Part shown: positions 7,162 through 54,082 of the stretch, in pieces
Position numbering within the stretch: position 1 is the stretch's first letter
Layout of the letters: every line of letters starts with the position of its first letter
DNA from: a virus
Lineage: Duplodnaviria > Caudoviricetes
Reading direction: 5' to 3' (one strand)
Length of the DNA: 54,082 nt
Virus record (IMG/VR): IMGVR_UViG_3300031653_000003
Span: 1 to 54,082 of that record
Program-made: the position numbers and the translations under genes
The notes under the pieces: model-generated
Database searches by the model: none
What the model was told of the DNA's origin: nothing
Seen by the model: the letters and a program-made list of their open reading frames with translations, nothing else

Positions 7162-7251
7162 TTTGGCCCCCTTAAGCCATATAACGGCGGGCCATAACCC
7201 GCCCGCTTTTAATAATTCAATAACCACCAACTACCCCACGCAAGGCATTAC

Positions 7252-8200: not shown

Positions 8201-8264
8201 TGGTTCACCTAATAATAAATTTACACCACACTAACATCACGCGCCCGGCCCGGCTGGTTGCCGG

Positions 8265-8714: not shown

Positions 8715-8745
8715 AGCTTCACCTTAAAATGAATTTACACCACAC

Positions 8746-8779
8746 TTGACATTATAATACAAGTATCATACGATGTCAA
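8746..8779 (-). promoter_or_regulatory. Consensus sigma70 promoter within an inverted repeat
   Basis: Minus strand TTGACA-17-TATAAT; TTGACAT/ATGTCAA inverted repeat. Confidence 0.7.
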
Positions 8780-17982: not shown

Positions 17983-18105
17983 ATATAACAAATCGTTGGT
18001 GGGCGAATTGCTACCACCGCGATTTTTGAAACATACTCGCCGGCAGAGTCAATAATCAAGTGGCTTGCGGTGCTGGCCCGCAATCGCCACAACTCAGTGT
18101 TCCGG
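17983..18105 (+). repeat. Solitary attC-like site; inverted near-copy of 40516-40638
   Basis: ATATAAC...GTT cores; its reverse complement aligns along its length with 40516-40638 with scattered mismatches. Confidence 0.75.
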
Positions 18106-30142: not shown

Positions 30143-30242
30143 TAATTTTGTGACACAATTATAGTGTAGATTCTATTCACAATTTATTACTGCGGAGGCG
30201 CAAAAAATAAAACATCTATTTAATATTTTGGTGGTATTAATT

Positions 30243-33200
30243 ATGGGCATGTGGCAAATCACGATCCCGGAAGCAACAACGAATCTAGATAATAACCCCT
30301 CGTTTGAAAAAAGCGTCAGCAGTTTGGCGGCGGCAAATGGCGCGGCCATTGCTCAAAGTTCAGACGAACAGGCTATCGGGTTTTATTCGGCCAAAGTAAC
30401 CCCCACGGCTGCTACTGATGACGGGGTTTACAGGGCTTATACCCTGACCGCCTCAACTACCTACACATTTAGTTTTTCGGTAAAGGCGGTTGATGGCATT
30501 GGTTATAAGGCTTACTTTTATGATGTAACAGCAGCCGGGCAATTAGGCGAGGCGGTTTCCTTTGTCGGTGACGGGACATGGCGGCGATATAATATCACCG
30601 TAACTACAAGCGCCAATACATCATATCGGGTTTATATTATTAAAAATGGCGATGCCTCAACCGGGGCATTTTATCTTGACGCCTTCCAGTTGGAAACAAA
30701 GGGCCACGCTACCACATATGGCGATGGGGATCAGCCGGGATGGATTTGGACAGCCGGAGCGCATACGTCAACCAGCGCCCGCAGTGGGCAAAGTACCGCC
30801 GGGGGGCGAGTAGAGGATTTGGGCCAAGACAAGTATCCCAAAATCCGTCATGCTCTGGGCGTTGGAGCAGCGCCTGTTGAGATCATAGATACGCTTCCGG
30901 CTCAAAGTGACGGCGGCGATTATCAGGATACTTTGATCCGGCCTCGGCAATTCCAGCTAATCGGCTATGCCGAAGGCAAAGGCAACGGGATAGATGGCCG
31001 GATTGACTATCATAGAAAACGCCGGAACCTACTACAGGCATTTAACCCTCACGGTGTAACCCCCAAGCAGCCGCGCAATTTACGTTACCGGGTAGATGGA
31101 AACTCGGTGATGATCCGGGCCGATTATGAAACTGGCTTACAGCGGCAAAAAACCCCAGACGCTTTTGCTAAAGAGGGTTTCAGCCTGGGCCTCAAGGCTC
31201 AAGACCCGTTTTTTAGGGCCGTAATGGGCGTAGCTAATAGCGATAATGGAGCCAACGGGATCGACGGGCAAGGGGCCAGTGTGCTAACCGCCCAGAGTAC
31301 CGTTACCGATGCCGATTATATTTTGCAAAAAGGAATTACCGGCGAATGGGCAGCAATGGGAACGGGGTTGAGTTTACCCATTCCTGGATTGCCAGATGGT
31401 GAAATAACCACAATGGCTATTGGCATTGACGGTTTCTTTTATATTGGCGGTCAGTTCTCTTCTGTTGGTGGAGTTGCTAATACAGCGGGGATAGCCAAAT
31501 GGGACGGGACAACCTGGTCAGCGTTGGGAACTGGGGCGAGTGGTGGCAATGTTCAATCTATTGTTATGGATTCGAGTGGCGATTTTTTTGTTGGTGGGAA
31601 TTTTACATCAATGGGTGGGGTTGCTAATACAGCGGGGATAGCTAAGTGGGACGGGACAACCTGGTCGGCATTATCAACGGGAGTTGATAATAACGGTGTT
31701 TATGCTCTTGCCATTGATTCAAGTGATAATTTATTTGCGGGCGGGAACTTTACCTTAATGTCAGGGGTTGCAAATACGGTCAGGATAGCCAAGTGGGATG
31801 GAAGCAATTGGACACCTTTGGGAACGGGAGTCAATGATATTATTTATGACCTTGCTTTTGACTCAAGTGATAATTTATTTATTGGTGGGTATTTTACTTT
31901 AGCGGGTGGGGTTGCTGATACGAATAAGATAGCCAAGTGGGATGGAAGCAATTGGACACCTTTGGGAACTGGGGCAAACAATACGGTTCATGCTCTTGCC
32001 ATTGATTCAAGTGATAATTTATTTGCGGGTGGAACTTTTACCTTAATGTCAGGGGTTGCTGATACGGTCAGGATAGCCAAGTGGAATGGATCAGCTTGGT
32101 CGGCGTTGGGAACGGGAGTCGATGACGGTGGAGTATGGTCTATTGTTATAGATAAAGGTGACGATTTATATTTGGGGGGCAATTTTACCCTAATTGGGGG
32201 CGACTCTTTTGCCGGAATAGCAAAATGGAACGGAAGTACTTTTTCGCAGCTTGGCTCAGGAGTCGATGCTATTATTTTTGCAATGACAATAAGCTATGAT
32301 GGCCAGCTATACATTGGTGGTGAATTTTCTTCTGCTGGTGGGGTATCTGATACGGACTATTTTGCTAGATGGACAGGAGTCGCATGGCGGACAATTGCAC
32401 TGTCCACAAAAGCTATACTGCAAGCCACCGATGGAAAAATTTACATGGGTGGTGGTTTTATAAATGCCGGGGGCGTGGCTAACGCTGACCGGATAGCTTA
32501 TTATGACCCGGAAACCATAACATTTATCGCTTTATCTACCGGGGCGAATGGTATAGTTAATGCTATCGCCGAAGCACCCAATGGTGACATCTACATAGGC
32601 GGATCATTTAGCCTGGTTGGAGGCGTGGCCGATACCGTTGGAGTAGCTTATTGGGATGTGTCTGCGTCCGTTTGGCTTCCTCTTGATACCGGGATAAATG
32701 GCACAGTGCTATCGCTGGCTTTTAGTCCTGACGGTGATCTATACATCGGCGGTTTATTTGAGGACGCCGGTGGGGTTGCCGATACTCAAAATCTGGCGAT
32801 ATGGGACGGCAGCGCATTTAATGCGCTATCAGATGAGCCTGACGGGGCTGTCAATGCCTTGTTGTTTGACAACGCCGGGACTCTCTGGCTGGCCGGGACG
32901 TTTGAAGATATTGGAGCCACAAACGTTGACTACATTGCCAGTTATAATACCTCGACAGACACTTTTAGCGCCCTGGAAACCGGCACGAATGGTTTTGTTA
33001 ACGATTTGGCTTTGGGGCCGAATGGCAATATTTATTTGGTAGGGGCTTTTACCCAGGCCGGGAGCATAGCCGGAGTCAATTATGTCGCCAGGTGGAACGG
33101 GACTCAATTTAGCGGGTTCGGGAGTGGTTTTAATAATGTTGCCTTTACGGTTGGGGTTGATGGGGATGGAAAAATCTATGTGGGCGGTGCATTTACCACA

Positions 33201-33734
33201 GCCGGGGGGGGTGAGTTACCGGACAAGGTGGCGGTATGGACAGGCTCAACATGGACGAGCGTTGACGTTGACCTGCCGGGGACGGCTACGGTTGAGGCTA
33301 TTTTGGTAACAAACGTTAGTATTTTTCTAGGCTTTGATACCGAGGGCAGCGCAACGGCTAACGGGGTAACGAGTCTCACTTATAATGGGGATGCTTATGG
33401 CTATCCGGTAGTTACGGTCAATGGGCCGGGAAGATTGTACGAGATAACGAACATCACCACCGGTCAGAGTATTTATTTTGACCTTGACCTGGAAGATGGC
33501 GAGGTTTTAACTGTTGACTTGACTCCGGGGAACAAAACAGTAGTGAGCACATTCCGGGGGGCGATTCCAAATGTGGTTTTAGAGGGTAGCGATTTGGAAA
33601 CATTTTACCTCAACCCTGGGGCCAATAGCATGTCGATTCTATTAGACGATGCCGGCGGGTCGGCTTATATGTTATGGGATGAGGTATTCCAGAGCTTTGA
33701 TTCGGTTATTTATTTGCCGATAGTGAGTGGTTAG
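30243..33734 (+). CDS. Distal tail protein with N-terminal carbohydrate-binding-like domain and inserted beta-propeller repeats
   Basis: TNLDNNPSFE CBM-like start; many repeats of YIGGxF...IAKWDGxxWxxLG; Dit-like C-terminus (YPVVTVNGPG...FYLNPGAN). Confidence 0.8.
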   Translation: MGMWQITIPEATTNLDNNPSFEKSVSSLAAANGAAIAQSSDEQAIGFYSAKVTPTAATDDGVYRAYTLTASTTYTFSFSVKAVDGIGYKAYFYDVTAAGQLGEAVSFVGDGTWRRYNITVTTSANTSYRVYIIKNGDASTGAFYLDAFQLETKGHATTYGDGDQPGWIWTAGAHTSTSARSGQSTAGGRVEDLGQDKYPKIRHALGVGAAPVEIIDTLPAQSDGGDYQDTLIRPRQFQLIGYAEGKGNGIDGRIDYHRKRRNLLQAFNPHGVTPKQPRNLRYRVDGNSVMIRADYETGLQRQKTPDAFAKEGFSLGLKAQDPFFRAVMGVANSDNGANGIDGQGASVLTAQSTVTDADYILQKGITGEWAAMGTGLSLPIPGLPDGEITTMAIGIDGFFYIGGQFSSVGGVANTAGIAKWDGTTWSALGTGASGGNVQSIVMDSSGDFFVGGNFTSMGGVANTAGIAKWDGTTWSALSTGVDNNGVYALAIDSSDNLFAGGNFTLMSGVANTVRIAKWDGSNWTPLGTGVNDIIYDLAFDSSDNLFIGGYFTLAGGVADTNKIAKWDGSNWTPLGTGANNTVHALAIDSSDNLFAGGTFTLMSGVADTVRIAKWNGSAWSALGTGVDDGGVWSIVIDKGDDLYLGGNFTLIGGDSFAGIAKWNGSTFSQLGSGVDAIIFAMTISYDGQLYIGGEFSSAGGVSDTDYFARWTGVAWRTIALSTKAILQATDGKIYMGGGFINAGGVANADRIAYYDPETITFIALSTGANGIVNAIAEAPNGDIYIGGSFSLVGGVADTVGVAYWDVSASVWLPLDTGINGTVLSLAFSPDGDLYIGGLFEDAGGVADTQNLAIWDGSAFNALSDEPDGAVNALLFDNAGTLWLAGTFEDIGATNVDYIASYNTSTDTFSALETGTNGFVNDLALGPNGNIYLVGAFTQAGSIAGVNYVARWNGTQFSGFGSGFNNVAFTVGVDGDGKIYVGGAFTTAGGGELPDKVAVWTGSTWTSVDVDLPGTATVEAILVTNVSIFLGFDTEGSATANGVTSLTYNGDAYGYPVVTVNGPGRLYEITNITTGQSIYFDLDLEDGEVLTVDLTPGNKTVVSTFRGAIPNVVLEGSDLETFYLNPGANSMSILLDDAGGSAYMLWDEVFQSFDSVIYLPIVSG

Positions 33735-35736: not shown

Positions 35737-36809
35737 TGTCGGATTTGGTTAAAAAAATTGTAGAATTACAACAGGAAGTTGAACGGCTAAAGACACGGGA
35801 CGCGCACCCGTATAGCAACTATTCGGCCACGGCTGCGCCTGGGGTGAACGATGATGCCGACGATGGTTATCAGCCCGGTTCGTTGTGGATAGATACGGTA
35901 AATGATAACGCCTATGTTTGTTTAGATTCTAAAGTGGGGGAGGCGGTGTGGGAACTTGCCAGCCCCAGCACAATCCTTAATTCTATAATTGGATTTAATC
36001 TAAGCTCGGCAACTGAGCTAACGATAAAGGTGGGGGCGGTAACAAAGACCCAGGCTAACCACACTATTGATACCGAGTCAGACGCCGCAACTGATGATTT
36101 GGATACTATAAATGGCGGCGCTGCGGCTGATATTCTTTTTGCCAGGCCGGAAGATTCAGCGCGAAACGTAAAAGTAACAGAGAATGGGAATATCTTCATT
36201 CCCTCCGGCCCAGATTTATATCTCGATAATACGAGCGACATATTAGGGTTACTCTTTGACGGTACGGACTGGCTAAATTTTGCCAATCCGTTTGGCCGAA
36301 TGTCTCTAATTGCGGAACACGAACTTGCCGCGCCGGACACCGACTTCACATTTGCGGATATTCCACAGACGTTCCGGCATCTGATGATGTGGCAACAACT
36401 CAGAACAGACAGGGCAGCCGTGTCGGATTTACTATACACACAAATAAACGCTGACGCCGGAAATAATTATGATGATATAGCCATTGTGGGAGGAACCGGC
36501 GGCACGTCAACCAGCGCCAACGCTGCCGGGGCTTGGACTTTCACGGGATACACAGCGGGGGCCAATTCAAGGGCAAATAACTTTTACCCAACAATTACTT
36601 TTATCCCGAATTATACAAACACAAATTTTGAGAAAAGTGGGCTGACTTTATCGGTTAGCTTTGCGGACGTTGCGACTGGAAATATGCGGCTAATTGTTGA
36701 CGCCATTCACTGGCGCAGCAGCAACGCCATTGCATCCATTACGTCACTACCAGGCGTTGGGCCTAACTTTGTGGAAAATTGTATTTTTCAATTGTACGGG
36801 GTGTTATAA
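35733..36809 (+). CDS. Tail fibre/receptor-binding protein
   Basis: APGVNDDADDGYQPGSLW and DDLDTINGG modules; FADIPQTFRHL...FQLYGV C-terminal domain. Confidence 0.7.
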   Translation: MMSDLVKKIVELQQEVERLKTRDAHPYSNYSATAAPGVNDDADDGYQPGSLWIDTVNDNAYVCLDSKVGEAVWELASPSTILNSIIGFNLSSATELTIKVGAVTKTQANHTIDTESDAATDDLDTINGGAAADILFARPEDSARNVKVTENGNIFIPSGPDLYLDNTSDILGLLFDGTDWLNFANPFGRMSLIAEHELAAPDTDFTFADIPQTFRHLMMWQQLRTDRAAVSDLLYTQINADAGNNYDDIAIVGGTGGTSTSANAAGAWTFTGYTAGANSRANNFYPTITFIPNYTNTNFEKSGLTLSVSFADVATGNMRLIVDAIHWRSSNAIASITSLPGVGPNFVENCIFQLYGVL

Positions 36810-37033
36810 TGAGTACCACATTAAAATGTAAAACAGGTGAAATAAGTAAAGTTCCCCAAACAGCCACCGAGTTAGCCGAGGCTGATGCGCGGCGGGTAGA
36901 AATAGCGGCGCGGGAGGCGGAAGAGGCAGCCAAGAAAGAGAAGAAAGAGAAAGCGTTGGACAAGCTACGGAAGTCGAGCGCCCCGGACATCAAGGATTTA
37001 TTAGTGTATCTGGGGGCAGGCGTCATTGAGTGA
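36809..37033 (+). CDS. Small tail-fibre-associated protein
   Basis: Coupled to the fibre gene stop (TAATG). Confidence 0.5.
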   Translation: MSTTLKCKTGEISKVPQTATELAEADARRVEIAAREAEEAAKKEKKEKALDKLRKSSAPDIKDLLVYLGAGVIE

Positions 37034-37050
37034 GGGCTTTACAATTGATC

Positions 37051-37467
37051 TTATGAGCCTAATGTCTTGGCGAAATAAGAACGTATTTCGCCAATCCTAT
37101 CCAGGTAAATTTTAACCACTTCCTGACCAAATTCATTATTTTCCAACAAATCGTTCTCGAATGACCCTAGCGCGTCGTATAGAGTTATAGCTTGTGATTC
37201 TGTCAACTTGATTCCATTTATTTCAATTGTAGATGGGTTGGCAGAGAAAAAATGTTGAAATCGTAAAGCAGTGCAAAGTTCGCCTATAATAGTTAGCTTT
37301 CCGTATTTCGGGGATGTCTTTTTGACAATCTTTACTTGCTCTTCGTTGAGACTGCCATAAATTTTTGCTAATTCATGCTCAATATCCGCGATAGTATCAT
37401 CGGGGAGTAGGCCCTTCCATTGTCTTTGAATTTTCTGAATCTCTTCTTTGCTGTAAGGTTTTTTCAT
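37051..37467 (-). CDS. Hypothetical protein
   Basis: MKKPYSKEE... with GGAGG RBS, downstream of the ParR-like gene. Confidence 0.55.
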   Translation of the reverse strand: MKKPYSKEEIQKIQRQWKGLLPDDTIADIEHELAKIYGSLNEEQVKIVKKTSPKYGKLTIIGELCTALRFQHFFSANPSTIEINGIKLTESQAITLYDALGSFENDLLENNEFGQEVVKIYLDRIGEIRSYFAKTLGS

Positions 37468-37468
37468 T

Positions 37469-37807
37469 TTAATCCTCCAAGTTTTCCATTTGATCAAGCA
37501 TATCAAGGGCCATTTCCCTCATGTTCTCATCTGCCGAATGGTCTGATCCATCATTATCTGACCCGTTAACATATCGTAGATTATTAACCCTTGCTTCAAT
37601 TGCGCTGACTACCTCCAATATCTTGGGGATCAGCTTTATTTTATCGGCCAGATTTGCAAGGTCTAAGGCGTCCTCCATATCTTTATATAGGTAAAGGGCC
37701 TTTTTTGTTGTTTCGCTTTTTTTCCCTTTTTTGTTGGGATGATTAAGCCATTCTATCAAACCTCGATCATTTTCAGGATCAAGCGAATAAGACTCGTTAT
37801 GCGCCAT
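37469..37807 (-). CDS. ParR-like ribbon-helix-helix adaptor
   Basis: SYSLDPENDRGLIEWL...KSETTKKALYLY N-terminus and acidic tail; directly after the ParM-like gene. Confidence 0.65.
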   Translation of the reverse strand: MAHNESYSLDPENDRGLIEWLNHPNKKGKKSETTKKALYLYKDMEDALDLANLADKIKLIPKILEVVSAIEARVNNLRYVNGSDNDGSDHSADENMREMALDMLDQMENLED

Positions 37808-37815
37808 GTTATCTC

Positions 37816-38805
37816 CTAACTGCCAAATTTTGCCCAGCCGAGGGTCATCATTCCCATTGCCTCGGCCCAGCGCGGGTCGTTAACAACTCTTGCCGGGGCA
37901 TATCTTTGCGCCAGGGTATGGCCTATCTCAATGGCTCCCCCGCCGCCGATTCTAAAATCATTGATAAACGGCATAACGGTTTTTGAGTTCCAAACGCTGT
38001 CGATCAGGGAGAATGAGGCATCAATATATGGAGTAAGTACGTCTTTTACCAGATCGGAGATTGATTCCGGCCCACTAGATAAAAGAATCTGCTTTCGCTC
38101 CATTGCCTTGATCCATTCCTGGGTCGGCATTTCGATGTCATACTTCCGCCCGGCAACATAAGCCAATTCATCCACAGCGTCAAGCAACCCGCCTTCTTCG
38201 CTGTTGGTTTGATCGGTAATAATTCTCCCGGTTTTTCCAACCGTTGCATAGGTTTTATTTCTTCCCCCAAGGCCGAGCCATGCAACCTGCTCGCCATCCT
38301 TTATGCCATCGGCCATCAAAGCAGACCAGCCCTGGATCGTAAACAAGACATTATTTATGTTAACGATCAGCGATTTTTCTCTCTGAGGTATATCCACAAA
38401 ATGAGTCCCCCTCAATACCGAGGCTATATCTTCCCGGTCTTTATAATCCTTGCGGGGTAACCCGGCAACCAGATCAACGTCAACAACGCGGGTTGAATAG
38501 CCAACATGCCGGGCGATAGCATACAAATTCATTGCCTCATAATGGGGGCCGGTATACCATTTCAAACCGCCCTTGCCCCAAATAAAATTGTGGCATTTGT
38601 GTTCCTCGGTACTCCCCCCGACAAACCATTTACCATAATTAGTGGACACCTGCATTAGATCAGGATCAGGAGACAGGAGGTCTTTAACCTCACCCAGTAC
38701 TGACTCAAACTCAAGGCGGTGAGGCTTTCCCGGCCTGGTCTTATAAATGCAAATACTCTTTGTTTGCGTGGTTCCAATATCATTTACGACAATTATATCT
38801 GTCAT
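37816..38805 (-). CDS. parM: ParM/StbA-family actin-like segregation ATPase
   Basis: VNDIGTTQTK (phosphate 1), LVAGLP, QG, GLGG (degenerate phosphate 2), IGGGGA. Start set at MTDIIVVND (38805). Confidence 0.8.
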   Translation of the reverse strand: MTDIIVVNDIGTTQTKSICIYKTRPGKPHRLEFESVLGEVKDLLSPDPDLMQVSTNYGKWFVGGSTEEHKCHNFIWGKGGLKWYTGPHYEAMNLYAIARHVGYSTRVVDVDLVAGLPRKDYKDREDIASVLRGTHFVDIPQREKSLIVNINNVLFTIQGWSALMADGIKDGEQVAWLGLGGRNKTYATVGKTGRIITDQTNSEEGGLLDAVDELAYVAGRKYDIEMPTQEWIKAMERKQILLSSGPESISDLVKDVLTPYIDASFSLIDSVWNSKTVMPFINDFRIGGGGAIEIGHTLAQRYAPARVVNDPRWAEAMGMMTLGWAKFGS

Positions 38806-38939
38806 TTCCTTGCCCTTTCGATTGTTATTATTTGTTAATATTATACAATAATATTCAGGATGCACAAAACATAGTAGAGCGTATTTTAACGGTTTCGCCC
38901 CCTCTTGGGGGGTGAATTCTCCCCACCACCCCCACCTGT

Positions 38940-39674
38940 TTAATTCTCGACAATTGACCAACTGCCGGTATCATCCGGCGGGGTAGGGTTCACGGCCACC
39001 GGAATATCGTACAATTTCCAGAGCAGATGGTTGACGGTACGTAGGTCACCATATCTCTTCGTATTCACCCGGTCTGCTATAATAATTCTATGAGCCTCAA
39101 GGAACGGCCTCACTCGCCGGGCCATAGTCTCGCCCACCGCCTTGGTTTCATTCGCCAATATCAGGTCTTTACAATTGCGCCACGCCCACGGTTTCCCTCC
39201 AGACACGTTGCCAAGTTCATCCATTCGATCATAGGCGTGCCACATCACCAACAAAACCAGATTGGCAAAACGGGTATCCTCGGTATTGGCCCTGCCCACC
39301 GGCGCGGTCTGCGCGGCGAGTTGATCATACCTCATCGCCTCAATTTCAAGCTGTTTTAACTCAACACGGTTCTGTAAAAACATCCCCACCAGATCGGCCA
39401 AAACAAACTTCGCTATCATAATCACAATTGAAACAATAAGCATGGCAACGATGAATTGTGCCACCGCCTCCCCCGGCTTACGCGCACCCAGTTGCGAGGC
39501 AATGAATATTGCGCATCCCCACATCACCGGCAAAAATAAAATAAGCGCACCTGCCCCGGCGAAGATAACGCCTGGCCAATTTGTGGCGTATTGATGAATA
39601 GTCGGCGGCTTGTCGTTTGGTAATACCCCCGGTGCTGTATTTTTCATTTTCCGGGCCATAGTAGACCTGCCCAT
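38940..39674 (-). CDS. Membrane protein (2 TM)
   Basis: Two hydrophobic helices followed by a soluble domain. Confidence 0.55.
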   Translation of the reverse strand: MGRSTMARKMKNTAPGVLPNDKPPTIHQYATNWPGVIFAGAGALILFLPVMWGCAIFIASQLGARKPGEAVAQFIVAMLIVSIVIMIAKFVLADLVGMFLQNRVELKQLEIEAMRYDQLAAQTAPVGRANTEDTRFANLVLLVMWHAYDRMDELGNVSGGKPWAWRNCKDLILANETKAVGETMARRVRPFLEAHRIIIADRVNTKRYGDLRTVNHLLWKLYDIPVAVNPTPPDDTGSWSIVEN

Positions 39675-40133
39675 ATTCGAGATAAAAAATATAATACCAA
39701 CAGGTGAGGTAGTTGAAGTATCCTATAATAGATCGTGTAATTAACCGAGCGAATTGTCAACAGCACCGCCAATACCGAGGCCACTAACATCCACGCGATA
39801 GACAGGGGGAGCCAAAATTCACGCCGTAAAAATACGTGATCAATAGCTGCCCCGTCTGACCTAGCGGATAAAGATAAAGTTATAGTGTGTTCGGCTTGCT
39901 TCATATTTTATGACCAGGATAACGGCAATGGCTATTAGTTGGAACGGGGGCGCTTTGGGCAGTTCGCGGGGTCTTTTGTAGTAATTGCTCTCGCACAAGC
40001 TACTGCAAAACGTGGAAGACATGCAGGATTGGAAATCAAATTCTCGACCACAAGAATAACACTTTACAATGGTATTCATTTTTGCGCCCCCGCAAAAATT
40101 ACGATACGTGTTTATTTAACGACGACGGGTGAG

Positions 40134-40508
40134 CTAACGCGCCCGCCCGTGATAATTGATTAAAAACCTACTCACCCACGCAAGACACCACTCATTTAGA
40201 GGCGTGGCTCTTGGGGTCGCTGTTGAGCGATTTGTTAGGGGGATTTCTTCAACGGCAATAGGAATAAGATCCCAATCAGATTCACCGGGAGCGTCCCAGC
40301 CCTCATATGTACCGCGCTCAAACCAATAATCTATTTTACACCTATAAACACCTGGCTTAGATGGGTATTTGTCTATTGATTGGGTGTTATCCTCTATATG
40401 CTCCCCATCCAGCAGGCCAATCATATCTTTTGGTGCGCTAACAACAAACTGACCACCATAAGCCGACACAGCTATAATCACGTTTTCAAAAGTTCTTATA
40501 TGTTGCAT
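40134..40508 (-). CDS. Cassette-borne hypothetical protein
   Basis: Starts right after the attC core and reads into the next attC. Confidence 0.6.
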   Translation of the reverse strand: MQHIRTFENVIIAVSAYGGQFVVSAPKDMIGLLDGEHIEDNTQSIDKYPSKPGVYRCKIDYWFERGTYEGWDAPGESDWDLIPIAVEEIPLTNRSTATPRATPLNEWCLAWVSRFLINYHGRAR

Positions 40509-40632
40509 TTTATCCCCCTAACGCTAAGTTGTGGCGATTGCGGGCCAGCACCGCAAGCCACTTAATTATTGACTCTGCTGGCGAGTGTTTTTTCAAAAAC
40601 CGGGCGGTAGCAATTCGACCACCAACGATTTG

Positions 40633-40902
40633 TTATGTGGTAGCCTCTGTCTTGCAATTAGCAAGATAGCTATCAGCCGCCTCTTTTGCTTCTGCTTCTG
40701 TTTCAAAAGCATGTTGACCGGCAGAATTTTCTATGATAATTCCTCGCACTTTTCCGACGTACTTGTGGACGAGTGACCGATCTAAAACTTGTGTTATTCT
40801 GCCAACGGTAGCCCGTCCACCAGAGAAGAATGCTGCTTTTGACTTCTTGTCCGGTAACGCTTCTAAAATTTTTAGATTTTTTGTATTTGATAATTGTGCC
40901 AT
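40633..40902 (-). CDS. Cassette-borne hypothetical protein
   Basis: AGGAG RBS after GTTATGT; the stop TAA lies inside the ACATAAC core. Confidence 0.7.
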   Translation of the reverse strand: MAQLSNTKNLKILEALPDKKSKAAFFSGGRATVGRITQVLDRSLVHKYVGKVRGIIIENSAGQHAFETEAEAKEAADSYLANCKTEATT

Positions 40903-40948
40903 TGTTTTCTCCTGTCCACATAACGGTTGAAATAAGCCGATTGCGGCT

Positions 40949-41227
40949 TTAACCTACTATATCTAATACATCACCAGATAGCCGATAATCACCATTCAAA
41001 TCTTCATCTGGTAGCAATTCGGCTTGATTGATTTGTTCTGCGGCGCATTGCTGGCAATAGTATCCAACCAGAACAATGTGTGTACCGCAGTTTGGGCAAT
41101 GCTCATAATGCGCCGGGCTATTATGGTACTGTTCAGAATGGCCGTGTTCGACTTTTATATTTGGCTCTTGGCAGACAGCACATGTTTCAAAGGTGATGTT
41201 ACCATTAAGGGTTATTGATGATGGCAT
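40949..41227 (-). CDS. Cassette-borne Zn-finger-like protein
   Basis: MPSSITLNG with GGAGG RBS; three CxxC motifs; reads through attC. Confidence 0.55.
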   Translation of the reverse strand: MPSSITLNGNITFETCAVCQEPNIKVEHGHSEQYHNSPAHYEHCPNCGTHIVLVGYYCQQCAAEQINQAELLPDEDLNGDYRLSGDVLDIVG

Positions 41228-41385
41228 AGTACCTCCAATTTTAAGATGCCGCAGAACGGGCCGCATTTCAGGGGCGCGCCCATTGCCCCACTAAATAAAC
41301 CTACTCACCCACGTGAGGGGACGCCGATAAAATGTGTCGCTCTCGGCGTCCCCTGCAAATGCTGGTTAGCGGGACGTGAAACCAA

Positions 41386-41589
41386 CTATACCAGAGGGTC
41401 AGGTTCACTATTTTGCAGGCGGTCAAATTCCTCTAATTCGCGTTTTGCGCTTTCCTGAGCGTGTATACGCTCAACACACCGGGCGATAACCTGAGTATTA
41501 TGCCGGGTGGCAGGTAATCCCCACCACCCGGCCAACTCAGCTATCATTCGGAGCGTTTCATCATCCGCTTGATAGCTGAATTGATTCAT
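41386..41589 (-). CDS. Ribbon-helix-helix-like regulator
   Basis: MNQFSYQADDETLRMIAELA...NTQVIARCVE; coupled (ATGA) to the upstream gene. Confidence 0.55.
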   Translation of the reverse strand: MNQFSYQADDETLRMIAELAGWWGLPATRHNTQVIARCVERIHAQESAKRELEEFDRLQNSEPDPLV

Positions 41590-41834
41590 TGCAGCAACAA
41601 CTCCGCAATCTCCTCGGCGGTGGCGTCGTTTAAGCTGTAGCCGGTGGCGGTTTCGAGGCCATTGCTGAGGTCAACAGCGATTTCGTCATATTCCTCGGTG
41701 AATGAAATATCGCTTAGGTGGGCTTTTGGGTAAGCCTCGTATTCGCCATTGCTCAATTTGAGTACAACCGCCCCGTTCATCCAATTATCGGCGTTTTGAA
41801 CTGCTTCTACTGTTGCGTTAAATTTTGTAGCCAT
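41586..41834 (-). CDS. Small highly acidic protein (candidate anti-defence protein)
   Basis: 82 aa, E/D-rich; AAGGAG RBS. Confidence 0.6.
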   Translation of the reverse strand: MATKFNATVEAVQNADNWMNGAVVLKLSNGEYEAYPKAHLSDISFTEEYDEIAVDLSNGLETATGYSLNDATAEEIAELLLQ

Positions 41835-41879
41835 TTTTTATCTCCTTGACTAAATGCTAATGTTTAATAGATATGCCTA

Positions 41880-41908
41880 ATTATAATACGATTATCGTAT
41901 GTTGTCAA
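41880..41908 (-). promoter_or_regulatory. Consensus sigma70 promoter with palindromic operator in the spacer
   Basis: TTGACA-17-TATAAT; ATACGATTATCGTAT palindrome at 41886-41900. Confidence 0.8.
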
Positions 41909-42024
41909 GGGGTTTTTGACATAATATACAAAACTCGTCAATAAATTTAAGGTTCACTCAGTCTCGCTAACTATTTATTAAGTGAACAACAGTTCGCGCT
42001 AAGTCAATAACAACGAAACTGTTA

Positions 42025-42414
42025 CTATATTCCCCGATCTCCCTTTTCCCTGGCATATTTCCTCCATGCCTCAGCCCGTTCATCTGGGGTCAAGTTTAAC
42101 GCCTTGATTTCCTCCGGCGACAATGGCACATAGGCGGAGACCCCGACTCCCTGCGGCCTTGTCGGTTTCCGCCCATAGGGGTTGCCCCGCTTGGCCCATG
42201 TTCCGGCTTCCATTTCTTTTTGCATCCGGGTCAATTCGGATTCGGGAATGAGATACCAACCCTTTTGTGAACCGTATTGTCCTTTCGGTTTCTTCTGCCT
42301 GATGGCCTTTAGCTTGCCGGTAGAGCAATACTTTTGAATAGTGATAACAGAATAGCCGGTTTTCTCGGCTACCTTGTAAGTGGTGTAATGGTTTTGTCCT
42401 TCAAGTTCAATCAT
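42025..42414 (-). CDS. HTH (excisionase/MerR-like) DNA-binding protein
   Basis: YTTYKVAEKTGYSVITIQKYCSTGKLKA...WYLIPESEL. Confidence 0.75.
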   Translation of the reverse strand: MIELEGQNHYTTYKVAEKTGYSVITIQKYCSTGKLKAIRQKKPKGQYGSQKGWYLIPESELTRMQKEMEAGTWAKRGNPYGRKPTRPQGVGVSAYVPLSPEEIKALNLTPDERAEAWRKYAREKGDRGI

Positions 42415-42833
42415 AGTCTGCCTCGAATTATATTAGAATTGTAATTGATTTTATCATAGAAATGGCCCCCCGTCAAGTCTGGAATGTCTAAAAAGCGCCT
42501 GACTAGCTAGGGTAAGAACACACCATCAATTCTCTATATAATCCCCTCCTGTTCGATCTGGGGCGATTCTGTGGAGGAGTAAGTCTTTTTAATTTTTCTG
42601 ATCTTATCCCTGATAGCCTTTGAAACATTCCCGATATAACCCTGCTGCTTTGTTTCTAGCCACGCTTGATAGATCAGGCTGCGGCGTAATCTAATAACGG
42701 TTTGTTTTTGGCGAGTGGGGTTGATCATTTGTAGAACTCCTGGATACTCTGAGTAGCTAAGTAAATTAACGGTTTTGGGAACCCGGGTTCCCAAGAATAA
42801 GTGTTGGACTCCCCCGGTTAGGCGGTCTTTAAT

Positions 42834-43304
42834 TTAGGCCAAATGGTGGTCTTGCCAGCCATAGTGCCGATGGTGGCAGTAATCACAAATTGGCGGTTGG
42901 TTTGCTTCCTCTGCTACCTGCAAGGATTCTTTTACCTCTCCCGATTCAACCAGTTCCCGGTCAGCGTCCAAACCCTGGAACATCTCCGAGATGGCGGCGG
43001 GGAGGGCTTGCGCCTCGGTGCTGCCGTGTACGTTCTGATACTCCACAAACATACTGATTGTATCTGACAAAATCCGATAAAGCTGCTCGCTTGTAAATGT
43101 GTATTTGACCCCTACTTTTCCCTTTTCTATTTCTTCCAAAATGTCATCATAGCAAAACCCCACCTTGGCCTTTTCAAACGCTTGCCCGGACGGGCAGGTA
43201 GCCACAATGGTAGACGTGCCGTAGGCTTTTAGAATATGCTCCGGCGTTTCTTGGGGCAGATGAACAAAACAACGATGATTACAAAATTTACAGTACGGAC
43301 CCAT
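42834..43304 (-). CDS. Hypothetical protein
   Basis: AAGGAG RBS; its own consensus promoter at 43357-43385. Confidence 0.65.
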   Translation of the reverse strand: MGPYCKFCNHRCFVHLPQETPEHILKAYGTSTIVATCPSGQAFEKAKVGFCYDDILEEIEKGKVGVKYTFTSEQLYRILSDTISMFVEYQNVHGSTEAQALPAAISEMFQGLDADRELVESGEVKESLQVAEEANQPPICDYCHHRHYGWQDHHLA

Positions 43305-43356
43305 TTTTTACTCCTTCATCTAATTGAATAACTTAATTGTTTTTAACTCTGTAGGG

Positions 43357-43385
43357 ATTATATCATAATAATACCATACTGTCAA
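43357..43385 (-). promoter_or_regulatory. Consensus sigma70 promoter
   Basis: TTGACA-17-TATAAT. Confidence 0.75.
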
Positions 43386-43569
43386 ATTACAATCTCAATA
43401 ATTGTTATGATTTTTGAGGGTTAAAAATCCCCCCGGTCAGATCAACCGGGGGGAGCCTTATTTTGTAATATCATCCAGGGGCTTAAAAAGTTTCCTGAAA
43501 TCGTCTAGCGTAACCGGATCACTGCTATACTGCCGGATTACAGTTTGGGCAAAGAGCAGCCCGGCCAAT

Positions 43570-44163
43570 CTATGCGGCCTCGCTTTCGGGGAACAACGGC
43601 TCAGGCTGCTGTTCTTTTTCCCAATATGATTTGGCCTGTTCGAAGGCTTCTTTTCCGGTTCCCTCATAGAGATTCATACCGTCCCAATCTAGCACCCCAA
43701 CTGCGGAAAAAAGAACTGTAATTGGGATGTTGTGGTTGGCAAGATTCTCTGCCATTTTTAATCGATTCTCCTCACTATCTGACCAGTGCCGAGGGGGAAG
43801 GGGTGGAAGTTCTTGTTTTTCCTCCAATGGCACGCTCAACGACTCAACTTCAAAATCCTTGAACGTTATCAGCCTGGCATACTCTGTACCGTTTTCGCCT
43901 TGGCCGGTGGCCCGGCTGAACCAAATACCATTCCCGAATTTCCCGGTGCCGGAGCGCCGGATAAACTGGTGATTGTTCCACAGCACAACGTTGACGCCAT
44001 GCTGGTCACTGGTCACAACTTCCGCGCCGATACTGGCCCAGTCAAAGGTTTGGTAAGCGGCCATCTTACGCCGGTAGTTAGGGGAAGCCTCGCCATGCTG
44101 GGCCAAAATTTGATTGAGTAAGTCAGTTTGCTTTTTGAGTTCTGCTAAAATCTGTTCATTCAT
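43570..44163 (-). CDS. DdrB-like single-stranded DNA-binding/annealing protein
   Basis: FDWASIGA...HQFIRR...WFSR...EYARLITF resembles my recollection of Deinococcus DdrB (FDWSLIGA...HAYRRR...YSRG...EYVTLAIF). Confidence 0.6.
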   Translation of the reverse strand: MNEQILAELKKQTDLLNQILAQHGEASPNYRRKMAAYQTFDWASIGAEVVTSDQHGVNVVLWNNHQFIRRSGTGKFGNGIWFSRATGQGENGTEYARLITFKDFEVESLSVPLEEKQELPPLPPRHWSDSEENRLKMAENLANHNIPITVLFSAVGVLDWDGMNLYEGTGKEAFEQAKSYWEKEQQPEPLFPESEAA

Positions 44164-44192
44164 TTTTGATTTTTCCTCTCTAATTTATTTGA

Positions 44193-44411
44193 TCATCTGT
44201 GTATGCTTGTTTGGGACAAGGGGAGGCAGGAAAGCCCACCTTTCTCATAGTTGCCATATACCCAACAAACAACCCCGGCTTCGTCGTCAACATAACGAGT
44301 GATGTTATAGCGTATATCGTTAATACTTTCCGTTTTTAACTGTTCTTTTGGCGGAGGCGCGGAACATGCGGTCAAGATAAGCGCCAGTAAAAAAATAATT
44401 AACCTTTTCAT
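44193..44411 (-). CDS. Lipoprotein
   Basis: MKRLIIFLLALILTAC lipobox. Confidence 0.7.
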   Translation of the reverse strand: MKRLIIFLLALILTACSAPPPKEQLKTESINDIRYNITRYVDDEAGVVCWVYGNYEKGGLSCLPLSQTSIHR

Positions 44412-45512
44412 TTCAAATCCTCTCTATGGGCCACAAAGCCGGTACTAGTACCAAAAATTTTAAACTGTCCATTATCAACAGCTACATTTAGTATACCCAA
44501 AAGCCTGGTTAGGCTGGCCGGGGTAAGGTTATACTTTCGCGCTGCCGGTAGTTTATCATATGTAATAGAGATAACGGTATTTTCTATCAGATTACAGCTA
44601 AAAGCATTTGTTTTCATTTCAAAGTCCTCTCTAATAATGACCGGCCTCACCCCTTAGCCGATCTGAGTCATTGGTGGGGTGGCTCATTGGGCCAAAGACC
44701 CGCGTCCACTATAACCGGCCTCGCTACCGGTAGCAAGCCTCCCACTGCACAGGATAAAAGCGAGAGTATTAGAGGAGGGAGACAATATCAGGGATGCCAC
44801 CATTTTTAATTACAAACTCCGGGGGTCTGCGGGTTCTTCTGGGTCGTCATATTCGGCGACCTCCCCGCAATCCAAACACTCGACCGACCACCCTCGCCAG
44901 TTACGGGTCACAACTCTTTGGGCTGCCACATCTCCAGAACCACACGCCGGGCAGGGGTTGTTTTTTTCGATTTCATTGGCTAACTGTTCATCTGTTTGAT
45001 ACCATTTAGTCATCTTAGCCTCGCTGGGAAGATAACTGACGTGGTTGAATTGTAACCACTCCCTCGGATATAACATCAAGGGCCTCGCCAGTATCAATAA
45101 GAATAGTCGTTTCCGGTCCACACACCATAATACTCAACACTTCGGCATTGATATTATCACCGAGTAAAATGTCACCTTCCCTTAGTTGGTCTGCGCGTAT
45201 TGATTGTGTTACCATAATTTATCCTCCACTCCTGTTGAGTTTTTAACATCCTGGGTGATCTGGCCTAAAGTACCATCGTACCCATAAATGTCTTTCCCAA
45301 TTTGTACTCTCCATTCTCCGTTTCTTGGGTCTTCGGTTGGAAGCCGGCGGCGCATCTTAACATCCGGATTAGATTCCAACTGCCAAACCCGGCCCCCGCT
45401 CTCTAACCGTTTGACCGGCTTCCAGCCGTGGAATAATGGGGAGTCGCTGATCTCCGGGCCACTTCTGTGTTTGTATCCGTTTCCCATAAAAACACCACCT
45501 CTATATCTAGGG

Positions 45513-45980
45513 TCAGCCATTTTGCCCCGCCTTGCTCATATTTTCCGCAAAATTAGAGCCAACCTTCCATTTTCCAGCGAAATCAGTTGAGACTACCGAG
45601 TCGTCCCTACCCCAATATCCCACGTACCAGGAAGACGCGCCCCGGAATAACCGCAGGTCATCATTTGGCATTCGGCGTAATTCAAACTCTGTGCCGGGGA
45701 CATCTATCATCTGCCCGGGTCTAATGATCGGCTGGGCCTCTATCAATTGTTTTACAATTTCGACCTGGGTTGCCGGGGGTAATAATTCCGGTTCCGGCTG
45801 TGGGTTTAACAGGCGATCCATTAAAATCTTCAAGCCCTGGGCCGGGGACATTTTGCCCAGCAGGACTCGCCGGTAAAGATCGGGAGCATGGCGTTGCAAT
45901 TGCAATGCTTGATATTTCTTGCGCCGCGCCGGGGGAAATAATTTGACGGCTGCATAATTCTGTGATAAACTTTCCATGTA
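45513..45980 (-). CDS. Hypothetical protein
   Basis: GGAGG RBS before MESLSQNY; first gene of the leftward operon. Confidence 0.55.
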   Translation of the reverse strand, partial: YMESLSQNYAAVKLFPPARRKKYQALQLQRHAPDLYRRVLLGKMSPAQGLKILMDRLLNPQPEPELLPPATQVEIVKQLIEAQPIIRPGQMIDVPGTEFELRRMPNDDLRLFRGASSWYVGYWGRDDSVVSTDFAGKWKVGSNFAENMSKAGQNG

Positions 45981-46141
45981 ATGACCTCCATCGTTACGCT
46001 TAATTGTTTTGGGGTTTGCTCTGCAAGCCCCTCGAAATTTCAACAGGGTTAAGAATTATTAACCCTGTTTTATTATAACTGATTTTTATTCGATTGTCAA
46101 ATTACGATACATATAATAAAGCGAGAAAGGAAGCGTAGAGG

Positions 46142-47595: not shown

Positions 47596-47950
47596 ATTGC
47601 CGGGTTGATAGTGGTAACAATCGCGTTGGGGTAAAGGCTGCTCGGTGCCTTAAACCGGAGGGGAAGGCCTACCCCGTTGCAACTGAAGCCGAACAGTAAA
47701 ACGGCCATAAAGCGGTACTTGATGTCACTGGTTCAAATCCAGTTAGGAGCGATTGTTCCTATAGCTCAGTGGTGAGAGCGCAAGTCCTTAATGTAGAGGT
47801 CGGGACTCTCTTTAAACTCCTGGTAACTCCGAATATAATAATCTTTTACAGATTACACCCGATTGGCCGATTAAGATTACACCCGATGTCCGATTGTAAT
47901 TATTCCGACTAACCAAACCCTGGGGTTGTTACCACTATCAACCCGGCAAT
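47596..47950 (+). ncRNA. Large structured RNA with permuted tRNA-like (YrlA-like) domain
   Basis: Perfect 25-bp terminal inverted repeat; T arm, closed acceptor stem and D arm in permuted order at 47717-47785; CCGA repeats. Confidence 0.8.
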
Positions 47951-48413: not shown

Positions 48414-48595
48414 TTGACAAATTCGGCAAAATGCTTAAAATAGAGAGTGTAGTATACAAACGGCTGTCGCAGAGCCTATAGCAAACACGCACAACAAAAG
48501 TTAACCACTTTTTTGGGTTGCCTTTTCGCCCCCCTTTGTGTGTTTAGGGACTGCGAACAGGCGGAAGGCAACCCAAAGGGGTGGTTATTTTTATT
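48414..48595 (+). promoter_or_regulatory. Promoter and attenuator-like structured leader of the replication initiator
   Basis: TTGACA-16-TAAAAT; alternative pairings 48464-48494 with 48536-48560 versus terminator 48502-48524 with 48565-48587 plus T-tract. Confidence 0.6.
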
Positions 48596-48614
48596 CCCCA
48601 TAGACGAGGACAAA

Positions 48615-49439
48615 ATGAGTGGAATATACCGAACAGTCAAGAACAAAGAATACTTCCATGCCAGCAACGAACCCTTCAACGATGAACGTCTATCATGGGA
48701 AGCGAGGGGAGTTATCGGGTATCTTCTCAGTAAGCCGGATGGCTGGGAATGCAGAAATTATGATTTATTAAATAAAGGGCCATCAGGGGAGCATAAACTA
48801 AAACGAATCTTGGCAGAACTCCGGCAGTATGGGTATTTGCGACGTTACCGGGTTCATGCGGATGGCGGGAGATTTGATTGGGTAACAGAGATTTATGAAT
48901 CGCCAAAACTCAATCCAACCATAGGGCGGTTTTCCACCAATGGTTCACCCACAGATGGTTCACCCACAGATGGAAAACCGCCCTGTATAGATAAGACTGA
49001 TTTAGATAAAACTGATTTAGATAAAACTGAAGAAGAAGCCCCCCCTCCCCCTAAAAAAGAAAATGGAAAATACGAACCCTGGCAACTATTAGCCCGGCAG
49101 GTTGCAGTAAATTGTAAGCATGATCTGAAGCTTCTTCGTAACGGCTCATTAAAGAAAGTATCACAACGTTGTGATATTGCCGGCCAATCCCTGGCCGAGA
49201 TAGGGGCCACGGTTGACAACCTCAAAGATCATGCCGAATGGTGGTATAAAAACGACTGGCGAGGCAAGCAAAAAGAAGATGGAATCCCCGGCAGTCCACC
49301 GACCCCGGAGCAAATATTGGAGACCTGGGGCCAATTCAAAAATGGCTGCACCAGTAATGGCAATGGCCGGGTGGCTGCACCTTTGACCCCGGCGCAGATG
49401 AAACGGGCGGAACAAATCAGGCAGGAAGATAAACAATAA
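48615..49439 (+). CDS. Phage replication initiator (N-terminal winged HTH)
   Basis: DERLSWEARGVIGYLLSKPDGW...ELRQYGYL; GAGG RBS; lies upstream of DnaB. Confidence 0.8.
   Translation: MSGIYRTVKNKEYFHASNEPFNDERLSWEARGVIGYLLSKPDGWECRNYDLLNKGPSGEHKLKRILAELRQYGYLRRYRVHADGGRFDWVTEIYESPKLNPTIGRFSTNGSPTDGSPTDGKPPCIDKTDLDKTDLDKTEEEAPPPPKKENGKYEPWQLLARQVAVNCKHDLKLLRNGSLKKVSQRCDIAGQSLAEIGATVDNLKDHAEWWYKNDWRGKQKEDGIPGSPPTPEQILETWGQFKNGCTSNGNGRVAAPLTPAQMKRAEQIRQEDKQ
48923..49030. repeat. Origin-like repeats inside the initiator gene
   Basis: 14-bp inverted repeat AGGGCGGTTTTCCA/TGGAAAACCGCCCT enclosing 2x ATGGTTCACCCACAG, then ~3x TAGATAARACTGATT. Confidence 0.7.
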
Positions 49440-49751
49440 TTTGACAATCGAATAATAATCTAGTATAGTATCTACACCATCAACAATCATCAAATATTAA
49501 CTAACCATCAAAAGGATTATTATGGCAGGAATTAAATTGTTTAGAATGAAAATTCATTGTATGTATTGCGGTTCAAACTATGTCACCGAGCCATCATACA
49601 AACCCGGCAATAGCTACGGTGGATGTTGCCCGTCATGTGCAGTGGAACAGAAGTCAATTATTCGCCGGACTATAGCCGAATTTCAACGGCTGCGTGGGAA
49701 ATAAAACAATTAAGCATAGACGAAAGTTATAAAAACAATGGAGGCATTACC

Positions 49752-53547: not shown

Positions 53548-54082
53548 ATGAAATTAACTAATTGGTTTAGTTCGTCCGGTCATTACAGAATAATTCACGC
53601 CGACCCTCCCTGGCGATTCAAGAATTGGAGCATGAAAGAGTTAGTTGAACGCGGGGAAAAATGGGCCAGGAAAAACGGGCGCAGCCCCTACCCGGTAATG
53701 ACTACCGACGATATTTGCAAAATGCCTGTTGAGAAAATAGCGGATAAAAACTCCCTTTTGTATCTCTGGGGAACATGGCCAAAATTGCTCGACGCCTTGC
53801 AGGTGATGGACGCCTGGGGCTTCACTTTTACTACTCAAGCGTTCACCTGGGTTAAACAAAATCCATCCGGCATTGGCTGGCATTTTGGATGCGGCTATTA
53901 TACGCATGGCAATACTGAATTTGTCTTGATTGGCAAGCGGGGCAAGGGGGTAAAGCGGGTAGACAAAGGTGTTTCCAGCTTGATAGTTTATCCCAGATGT
54001 CAGCACTCAGCCAAGCCACCAACGGCCAGAGATCGAATTGAACGGTTACATGGGGATGTTTCCAGGGTTGAGTTATTCGCCC
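53548..54082 (+). CDS. MT-A70-family (Spo8/IME4-like) adenine methyltransferase, 5' part; continues across the junction to position 330
   Basis: ATG at 53548 gives MKLTNWFSSSGHYRIIHADPPWRF...LYLWGTWP...WGF...FTWVK...GCGYYTHGNTEFVLIGKRG. The DPPW motif is present and the frame continues into HSAKP...RVELFAR. Confidence 0.9.
   Translation, partial: MKLTNWFSSSGHYRIIHADPPWRFKNWSMKELVERGEKWARKNGRSPYPVMTTDDICKMPVEKIADKNSLLYLWGTWPKLLDALQVMDAWGFTFTTQAFTWVKQNPSGIGWHFGCGYYTHGNTEFVLIGKRGKGVKRVDKGVSSLIVYPRCQHSAKPPTARDRIERLHGDVSRVELFA

Follow-up and report, generated by a model that had tools for sequence, protein, structure and literature searches.

Cassette arrays of probable integron type in a closed tailed phage genome that encodes no integron integrase

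How does a tailed phage without an integron integrase come to carry what looks like a row of integron cassettes? The question is raised by the IMG/VR virus record IMGVR_UViG_3300031653_000003 (Duplodnaviria; Caudoviricetes), the whole of which, 54,082 nucleotides (nt), was analysed here and is referred to as the window. An earlier note had described four consecutive minus-strand units between 41987 and 40110 as cassettes bounded by attC recombination sites, and had proposed that the phage uses a host integron integrase (IntI) in trans to acquire and shuffle accessory genes. We conclude that the region is probably a genuine integron cassette array of the CALIN type (cluster of attC sites lacking integron integrases) in a closed, integrase-less tailed phage, served by a host IntI in trans. 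That the units are cassettes bounded by attC sites we regard as highly probable, and that IntI acted on the phage genome itself as reasonably likely. The description of integron-type cassettes was upheld by covariation and by two covariance models (R1 and R2), and the claim that a host IntI is actively used to acquire and shuffle them went further than our data show. The earlier note had also overlooked a second array (about 8800-6150), a solitary site on the plus strand (17983-18105) and a 126-nt terminal overlap of the record.

The four pairs of a GTT core and its complement that had been reported for the first array (array 1) were all recovered, each of the eight motifs lying at the coordinates claimed. 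Unit 1 (41365-41971) runs from GTTAGCGAG (41971-41963) to CCCGCTAAC (41373-41365), ends which an inverted-repeat search extended to GTTAGCGAGAC / GTCCCGCTAAC (11 nt, one mismatch), and holds the overlapping open reading frames (ORFs) 41834-41586 (82 amino acids, aa) and 41589-41386 (67 aa), neither with a Pfam or PHROG family. Unit 2 (41035-41257) is bounded by a perfect 10-nt pair (GTTCTGCGGC, 41257-41248 / GCCGCAGAAC, 41044-41035) and unit 3 (40632-40924) by a perfect 9-nt pair (GTTATGTGG, 40924-40916 / CCACATAAC, 40640-40632), while in unit 4 (40234-40522) the pair GTTAGGG (40522-40516) / CCCTAAC (40240-40234) extends to GTTAGGGGGAT / ATCCCCCTAAC, 11 nt without a mismatch. The junctions, put at about 120 bp, measured 121-126 nt, and the statement that ORFs stop within or continue across the junctions holds: the 89-aa ORF of unit 3 (40902-40633) takes its TAA stop from the inverse core, inside R'', the 92-aa ORF of unit 2 (41227-40949), which shows a weak double zinc ribbon, enters attC B, and the 124-aa ORF of unit 4 (40508-40134) continues through attC D, the latter two entering their junctions by about 95-110 nt. 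The array end given as 40110 is slightly off, as the last site most likely stops at GTTAAAT (40121-40115).

We assessed by chance models how readily such chains of units, joined by junctions of 60-160 nt, arise. With 7-nt cores a chain of at least four units appeared in 6 of 300 Markov-1 windows; with perfect cores of at least 9 nt the observed chain of three was reached in none of 1000 null sequences, and a chain of two in 15 of 1000. Having four attC sites in 1.26 kb (41371-40115) and no TIGR02249 or PF00589 match record-wide, array 1 agrees with the definition of a CALIN as at least two nearby attC sites without intI close by (Cury et al. 2016, PMC4889954). It is not a complete integron: there is no intI, a phage consensus promoter stands in place of Pc, and the stretch upstream of unit 1 (Z) gave no attC match and contains no definable attI.

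Canonical attC sites begin with R'' (RYYYAAC) and end, 57-141 nt apart, with R' (G|TTRRRY), and their extrahelical bases on the R''/L'' arm select the bottom strand. We found this anatomy at each junction of array 1 on the minus strand: in attC A (41251-41371, 121 nt; R'' CGCTAAC, L'' TTT-G-CAG, L' CTGAAA, R' GTTCTGC), attC B (40918-41041, 124 nt; R'' GCAGAAC, L'' AAT-C-AAG, inner stem CCGA-A-TTGC, L' CTTATT, R' GTTATGT), attC C (40516-40638, 123 nt; R' GTTAGGG), whose 5' arm carries three single-base bulges (GTTG-G-TGG-T-CGA-A-TTGC), and attC D (40115-40240, 126 nt; R'' CCCTAAC, L'' GCT-C-AAC, L' GTTAGC). The best attC of the genome, attC G, lies in the second array on the same strand (7179-7300, 122 nt; R'' ACCTAAC, L'' CAT-C-AAC, L' GTTATG, R' GTTATAT) and has a bulged G and a bulged A in its inner stem. 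Terminal AAC and GTT are present in A, B, C, D, G and the solitary site C', all 121-126 nt in length. In A, B, C, G and C' the bulged bases of both the inner stem and the L box are all found on the R''/L'' side, which in the top strand is the 5' arm. D and G are homologous, though the ORFs entering them read different frames.

Thirteen copies of the D/G-type element, 123-132 nt long, share one layout, in which R'' ((Y)CTAAC) is followed by a spacer of about 5 nt, an L'' of three, one bulged and three nucleotides, an inner stem made of a 3-bp stem, an invariant unpaired A and another 3-bp stem, a centre of about 65 nt that includes the conserved block CGTGGGTGAGTAGGTTT, and then the complementary arms, L', a spacer and R' (GTT...). 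Covariation of this fold was scored on 10 copies from outside the window, seven from the Anaerolineae metagenome-assembled genome (MAG) G001 together with those of the metagenome contigs L023 and L027. Of all cells, 87.3% were paired, versus 27-42% with the partners slid, compensatory changes were seen in 10 of 19 pairs, and the score was reached by none of 500 shuffles. Pairing was 92.7% in the L box and 93.0% in the inner stem, with 7 of their 12 pairs compensatory and columns 19 and 27 unpaired. RNAalifold, unaided, recovered the inner stems (16 pairs, 7 with compensatory changes), and when enforced, the attC-type fold of the bottom strand was stable at -6.4 to -20.0 kcal/mol (DNA parameters), but less so than the unconstrained optimum.

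The earlier note had called for an attC covariance model, for which we used two models of our own as proxies: R1, built from the 10 outside copies only, and R2, built from eight integrase-linked sites (five class 1 cassette sites and three Kovacikia plasmid sites). Both matched at A, B, C and G. R1 matched G (102.5 bits, E 2e-27), D (86.9 bits, E 7e-23), A (69.2 bits, E 9e-18) and, more weakly, B (15.7 bits, E 0.028) and C (11.5 bits, E 0.49), each end to end at the unit boundaries. With R2 the top four places of 108 kb searched were G (41.9 bits, E 4.2e-8), A (26.4 bits, E 2.9e-4), B (25.2 bits, E 5.9e-4, once more spanning the site from one unit boundary to the other) and C (24.2 bits, E 0.001), and C' gave a local match (17987-18101, plus strand; 10.6 bits, E 2.5); in 95 kb from six distantly related phage contigs R2 had no match at E<=1. 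Applied to known integrons, R1 matched each of the five annotated class 1 cassettes on two plasmid loci at its 3' end (L073 and L074; aadA1 5.7e-7, dfrA14 1e-6, blaVIM-24 9.1e-6 and 2.2e-5, aac(6')-31 0.2), with nothing below E 3 elsewhere in these loci, and found three sites on a Kovacikia plasmid, on the strand divergent from its annotated integron integrase. R2 in turn found five co-oriented sites in L023.

A list of all units with perfect cores revealed an adjacent pair, 7675-7294 and 7185-7006, in another minus-strand block, which we refer to as array 2. The unit 7294-7675 is bounded by GTTAGGTTGC / GCAACCTAAC (10 nt, perfect) with ORF 7659-7252 (135 aa), and the unit 7006-7185 by GTTATATGGC / GCCATATAAC (10 nt, perfect) with ORF 7161-6988 (57 aa). 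Behind the latter lies a degenerate attC-like junction, H (6926-7012, minus strand), in which R'' (ATATAAC) and R' (GTTATCT) are intact and the L boxes are unconvincing, followed by ORF 6824-6159 (221 aa); R2 gave a partial match there (7015-6975, 10.4 bits, E 2.8). Taken alone, with one strong site (G) and the degenerate H, array 2 is a borderline CALIN. Over both arrays, the start of the cassette is complementary to its own R'' in six units, over 9-11 nt, five perfectly and one with a single mismatch, and the same complementarity was found in L023, L027 and G001. The solitary C' (17983-18105, plus strand) is identical to attC C at 110 of 124 aligned positions, the two forming a 120-nt inverted repeat (88%), and is placed where non-coding DNA separates structural modules.

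The first two units of array 2 (7766-8714, minus strand), comprising ORF 8714-8265 (149 aa, ASCH-like, phrog_3193) and ORF 8200-7808 (130 aa), are of a different, homology-based module kind beside the integron-type cassettes. A 46-nt 3' repeat (8281-8236 / 7811-7766, 87% alike) stands behind each of the unrelated ORFs and a 36-nt repeat of 5' untranslated region and ribosome binding site (8197-8232 / 8711-8746, 86%) ahead of each. We considered the junctions formed by the 46-nt repeats (E and F) as attC sites and rejected them, as neither R1 nor R2 recognises either one; the pattern is also missing in 41 relatives of G001. A 71-nt inverted repeat (80%) links 8130-8200 to 14360-14430, the first ~24 codons of ORF 8200-7808 (minus strand) and ORF 14360-14953 (plus strand) being related at the DNA level.

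Where do such sites come from? A 17-mer common to A and D was scanned in genome and metagenome collections and gave 18 genome and 22 metagenome matches, about the number expected by chance, only three of which extend to the whole element of ~125 nt: L014, a contig of G001, and the metagenome contigs L023 and L027. Three cyanobacterial matches were set aside as chance hits inside a conserved gene. The three whole-element loci have only the element in common with the phage, their flanking DNA and proteins being unlike. Over 44 nt, G and the L023 copy are 95% identical, D is homologous to the L027 copy as it is to G, and C was matched in the G001 contigs C285, C459 and C40. L023 and L027 have chains of GTT/AAC-bounded units of their own, L023 being a classical array with five co-oriented attC sites, and G001 holds at least 8-12 copies, in three places with the complement of the inverse core 1-1.3 kb upstream. 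A strongly conserved central block, CTTGCGTGGGTGAGTAGGTTTT, lies outside the R and L stems at 40164-40180 and 41297-41313 of the window and in the L014, L023, L027 and G001 copies, and might be a host-factor site or merely a mark of shared ancestry.

The IntI of G001 exceeds the TIGR02249 cut-off (324.5 bits), as none of 14 control genomes did, and the fragment is 57% identical to IntI1; at L058 (G001:C156, 9284-10081, minus strand) one of its integron-integrase genes, a 265-aa ORF, matches only TIGR02249 positions 1-190 and 291-314 and appears to be an internally deleted IntI. At E<=1e-5, R1 matched in 15 of 41 G001 relatives, with copies of 85-126 bits in four genomes, versus none in 41 sampled genomes of the cyanobacterial order that had given the chance 17-mer hits. 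Full-length IntI (461 bits) was found in G024 and G005, and at L088 an attC match is situated 0.9 kb upstream of intI, in divergent orientation. Matching the sites to host integrons, another of the checks proposed, thus located the same attC sub-family in IntI-encoding Anaerolineae (G001 and relatives), and on these matches the sub-family is typical of that clade. Chloroflexi are among the integron-bearing phyla listed by Cury et al. 2016 (PMC4889954).

Both arrays head leftward operons and have one strong promoter each. The window contains four perfect sigma-70 consensus promoters (TTGACA-17-TATAAT), all on the minus strand, where 0.01 would be expected by chance: one heads array 1 from inside unit 1 (41880-41908), one heads array 2 (8751-8779) and by eye shares 23 of 29 positions with it, and two more lie at 43357-43385 and 46072-46100. 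The promoter region 46072-46104 is repeated inverted (85%) at 49437-49470 (plus strand), upstream of the DnaB helicase gene. Together, the promoters at 41880, 8751, 43357, 46072 and 49437-49470 look like a phage early promoter set.

These features suggest how the cassettes could have been gained. The bottom strand, which for both arrays is the plus strand of the window, could fold when single-stranded, bringing R' together with R'' and L' together with L'' as paired arms, and the bulges on the R''/L'' arm would mark it as the strand recombined by an integron integrase at G|TT. While the phage was in an IntI-encoding host of Anaerolineae type, the host IntI, acting in trans, may have inserted cassettes, initially at a secondary site consisting of a plain GTT and later at resident attC sites, and the phage promoters would transcribe the promoterless cassettes in a way similar to Pc in an integron. 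Indirect support for an action in trans comes from the Anaerolineae attC type, from the presence of attC sites at three loci and from an independent sequencing run of another sample (X2), in which a 197-nt contig (depth 2.9) matches 41788-41971 without a difference and departs from the window past 41971, where the G of the first GTT core lies; X2 holds small pieces only, such that uncovered parts carry no meaning. The 135-aa cargo protein of ORF 7659-7252 has a single homolog, P0002 from a 3.8-kb contig, which is 92% identical and stops at residue 119, the very point at which the ORF of the window runs into R'' of attC G; for the cargo, families in Pfam and PHROG are limited to the ASCH-like protein (phrog_3193) and the weak zinc ribbon. 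A megablast of 36000-46000 against 50,697 phage records gave no match, the D/G-type pattern occurred 0 times in viral contigs, and among the viral contigs searched we found no related phage with a different cassette order.

Several observations weigh against a cassette array worked by a host integrase. With respect to the sites, the core sequences fit GTTRRRY loosely (GTTCTGC, GTTATGT), the 3' end of D is irregular with an over-long 3' spacer ahead of GTTAAAT, R2 matched D only locally (11.7 bits, E 1.3) and failed on the full-length site, and H, E and F are not recognised as attC by the two models. Since R1 and R2 are our own models with a shortened calibration, all their E-values are rough, and the fitting of the R2 alignment to the R1 structure leaves them partly dependent on each other. 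Because the long centre (about 65 nt) makes hairpins of its own, the bottom strand in its attC-type fold lies 2.6-12.3 kcal/mol above the unconstrained minimum free energy (MFE); attC hairpins were not seen in the unconstrained MFE folds. With respect to mobility, the junction evidence from X2 is a single 197-nt contig of depth 2.9, close relatives sought in viral contigs through the ParM-like and helix-turn-helix (HTH) proteins were not found, and terminase relatives (at most 45% identity) carry no attC matches in which cassette turnover could be seen. For three cargo ORFs a search of 41 genomes from the G001 clade gave no homolog, and the 89-aa ORF 40902-40633 matched nothing but itself among 5.8 billion proteins, so that none of the cassettes was traced to a bacterial integron. 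The host is deduced from the attC type only, GC content being uninformative, and the phage portal protein has no match in G001; a tblastn search with TerL and the prohead-protease-like protein also found no host.

The main rival accepts the attC sites as genuine and sees the arrays as passive relics, host array DNA captured en bloc by illegitimate or homologous recombination with no integrase acting on the phage. Off-target recombination of these kinds was raised as a route into phages in the available text of Qi et al. 2023 (PMC9892861). The complementarity within each cassette would survive such a capture, D and H look decayed, and no turnover of cassettes was demonstrated among relatives. 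Against en bloc capture stand the attC sites at three loci and on both strands, including the inverted pair C/C', 89% identical and 22 kb apart, and the X2 contig, whose point of divergence is precisely the G of GTT. In unit 1 as in the unit at 7675, moreover, the starting GTT cores lie outside any recognisable attC and yet match their own inverse cores, as expected for secondary-site insertion, and both arrays are positioned precisely behind phage consensus promoters. We consider en bloc capture unlikely.

Far less probable still is that an unrecognised recombinase of the phage itself acts on the sites and makes a host enzyme unnecessary, though many ORFs are without a family and a RusA and a DdrB-like single-strand-binding protein are encoded. 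Six-frame profile searches of the closed genome were empty for Phage_integrase (PF00589, no match even at E<=10), TIGR02249 (none at E<=1) and Resolvase (none at E<=0.1), confirming the statement that there is no tyrosine recombinase in the genome and extending it to serine recombinases. The negative gains weight from the closure of the record on itself. The window is the entire IMG/VR record, labelled linear and 76% complete, in which 53957-54082 is identical to 2-127 (a perfect terminal overlap of 126 nt) and an ORF for an MT-A70 methyltransferase (245 aa) is continuous across the junction; very probably the genome unit is complete at 53,955 bp and the overlap is an assembly closure. In addition, the sites match the substrate of IntI, and IntI is present in genomes with the same attC sub-family.

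Could the junctions instead be regulatory hairpins of the phage, terminators or RNA elements, with the GTT/AAC complementarity as a by-product? Weak terminator-like hairpins do occur inside A and C, ORFs overlap the elements, and the conserved D/G centre CGTGGGTGAGTAGGTTT is left without an explanation. The number of terminator-like sites in the window equals that of shuffles (3 found versus 3.0 expected), however, and no Rfam family matched at its gathering score. The element family is found in bacterial cassette arrays and near intI, the junctions are found by R2, and conservation is independent of frame, D and G being read differently. This explanation we regard as quite improbable. An equally slight chance attaches to an assembly chimera of bacterial integron DNA and a phage contig, for although this is a metagenome assembly in which the C/C' repeats do break contigs, the three attC loci are interleaved with phage promoters and same-strand genes, the GC content of the arrays (45.5% and 42.6%) is near that of the genome (47.8%), the contig closes on itself, and Logan contigs of 8.6 kb and 31.5 kb (run X1, possibly the source run, in which case only the assembler is independent) link phage genes to the array from both sides and break only inside C because of the C/C' repeat.

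If the array is the work of a host IntI, what kind of phage carries it? The plus strand encodes the terminase, portal, tape-measure-size and tail genes. A ParM/ALP-type partition protein (37816-38961, minus strand), a replication initiator (48513-49439, plus strand), DnaB helicase (49623-51125, plus strand), RusA, the DdrB-like protein, a Lar-like protein and two DNA methyltransferases are also encoded. Since a ParM-type partition gene and a replication initiator are present along with DnaB and without an integrase, the phage may persist as a plasmid-like prophage. A bolder proposal, which we put forward as a tentative and rather doubtful one, is that the phage serves as an integrase-less integron platform, probably as a plasmid-like prophage in an Anaerolineae-type host whose IntI repeatedly inserts and excises cassettes downstream of the consensus early promoters of the phage. 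Were this so, the phage would sample the cassette pool of its host clade, perhaps including anti-defence genes, and carry cassettes between cells. It would be the first such link for Chloroflexota, and insertion at plain GTT would seed new arrays in the phage genome.

Other features of the genome were noted away from the arrays. A long hairpin at 48496-48592 (plus strand) with the ends GTTAACCAC / GTGGTTAT has a promoter-like site upstream and the replication-initiator gene downstream; it scores weakly in both attC models (E 0.44 and 0.88) and could be a chance structure, a leader structure or a decayed attC. At 47596-47620 / 47926-47950 (plus strand) a perfect 25-nt inverted repeat surrounds 305 nt of non-coding DNA, within which 47701-47806 weakly matches YrlA (RF02553, bacterial Y-RNA-like; 29.7 bits, E 1.7e-4, against a gathering score of 69 that it does not reach), and the region 47596-47950 may encode a Y-like RNA carried by the phage, its terminal stem being long. 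ARAGORN found no tRNA. Four to five tandem copies of 144-147 nt (64-87% alike) at 31437-32125 lie within the 1168-aa ORF 30228-33734, the product of which is probably a tail fibre or a protein for host recognition, built of repeat domains.

Integron cassettes are usually thought of as plasmid- or transposon-borne, and attC clusters in phages are rare. The present one is unusually clean, with a closed genome, no recombinase and base-exact site boundaries, and its sub-family leads back to integron-bearing Chloroflexota, about whose phages and integrons alike little is known. It offers a testable triangle of phage, host and integron: do host integrases act on phage DNA, whether infecting or resident, and are captured cassettes placed behind phage early promoters? 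The case also illustrates that the attC type can be a host clue for uncultured phages.

How does this phage compare with known systems? T4-type phages have promoter-stem-loop mobile regulatory cassettes, with a promoter at each ORF and homology-driven recombination. Like these, the arrays consist of small accessory early-region ORFs flanked by repeats that could mediate shuffling, and the first two units of array 2 resemble them more than they do integron cassettes. We did not adopt this classification for the arrays, in which a promoter and stem-loop do not precede every ORF; they have one promoter per array and junctions that match attC models. The class 1 attC sites of aadA1, dfrA14, blaVIM-24 and aac(6')-31 share with the phage sites the order R''-spacer-L'' (3 + bulge + 3)-stem (3 + bulge + 3), ending in L'-spacer-R', and models detect the two groups reciprocally, whereas the class 1 group measures 65-91 nt and closes in a short terminal loop and the phage sites have a centre of ~65 nt whose own hairpins compete in silico.

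The chromosomal integrons and CALINs of Chloroflexota (G001, G024, G005, G008, G014) have the same sub-family of 123-127 nt with its R and L boxes and conserved centre, phage copies scoring 69-103 bits with the model from non-window copies. Those genomes encode IntI while the phage does not, and each of the three cargo ORFs is found in 0 of 41 genomes. CALINs of phages are already known from Qi et al. 2023 (PMC9892861), of which the present phage is another case: the available text reports 17 among 10,705 phage genomes, temperate and virulent, and recombination by IntI1 of 5 of 6 phage attC sites tested, virulent phages being among those with functional sites. As there, small co-oriented cassettes are separated by attC sites, an integron integrase is lacking and a ferrying of cassettes is proposed. 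The insertion of cassettes by IntI at non-att sites of bacterial genomes, as reported in the available text of a bioRxiv preprint (10.1101/2022.09.11.507474), would explain the cassettes whose first GTT lies outside attC (unit 1 at 41971 and the unit at 7675) as well as C'. Compared with the CALINs described in that part of Qi et al., the phage presented here, known from its sequence alone, differs in having attC sites at three loci, consensus phage promoters ahead of its arrays, and long sites (121-126 nt) with a conserved centre, belonging to a sub-family that we could trace to IntI-encoding Anaerolineae.

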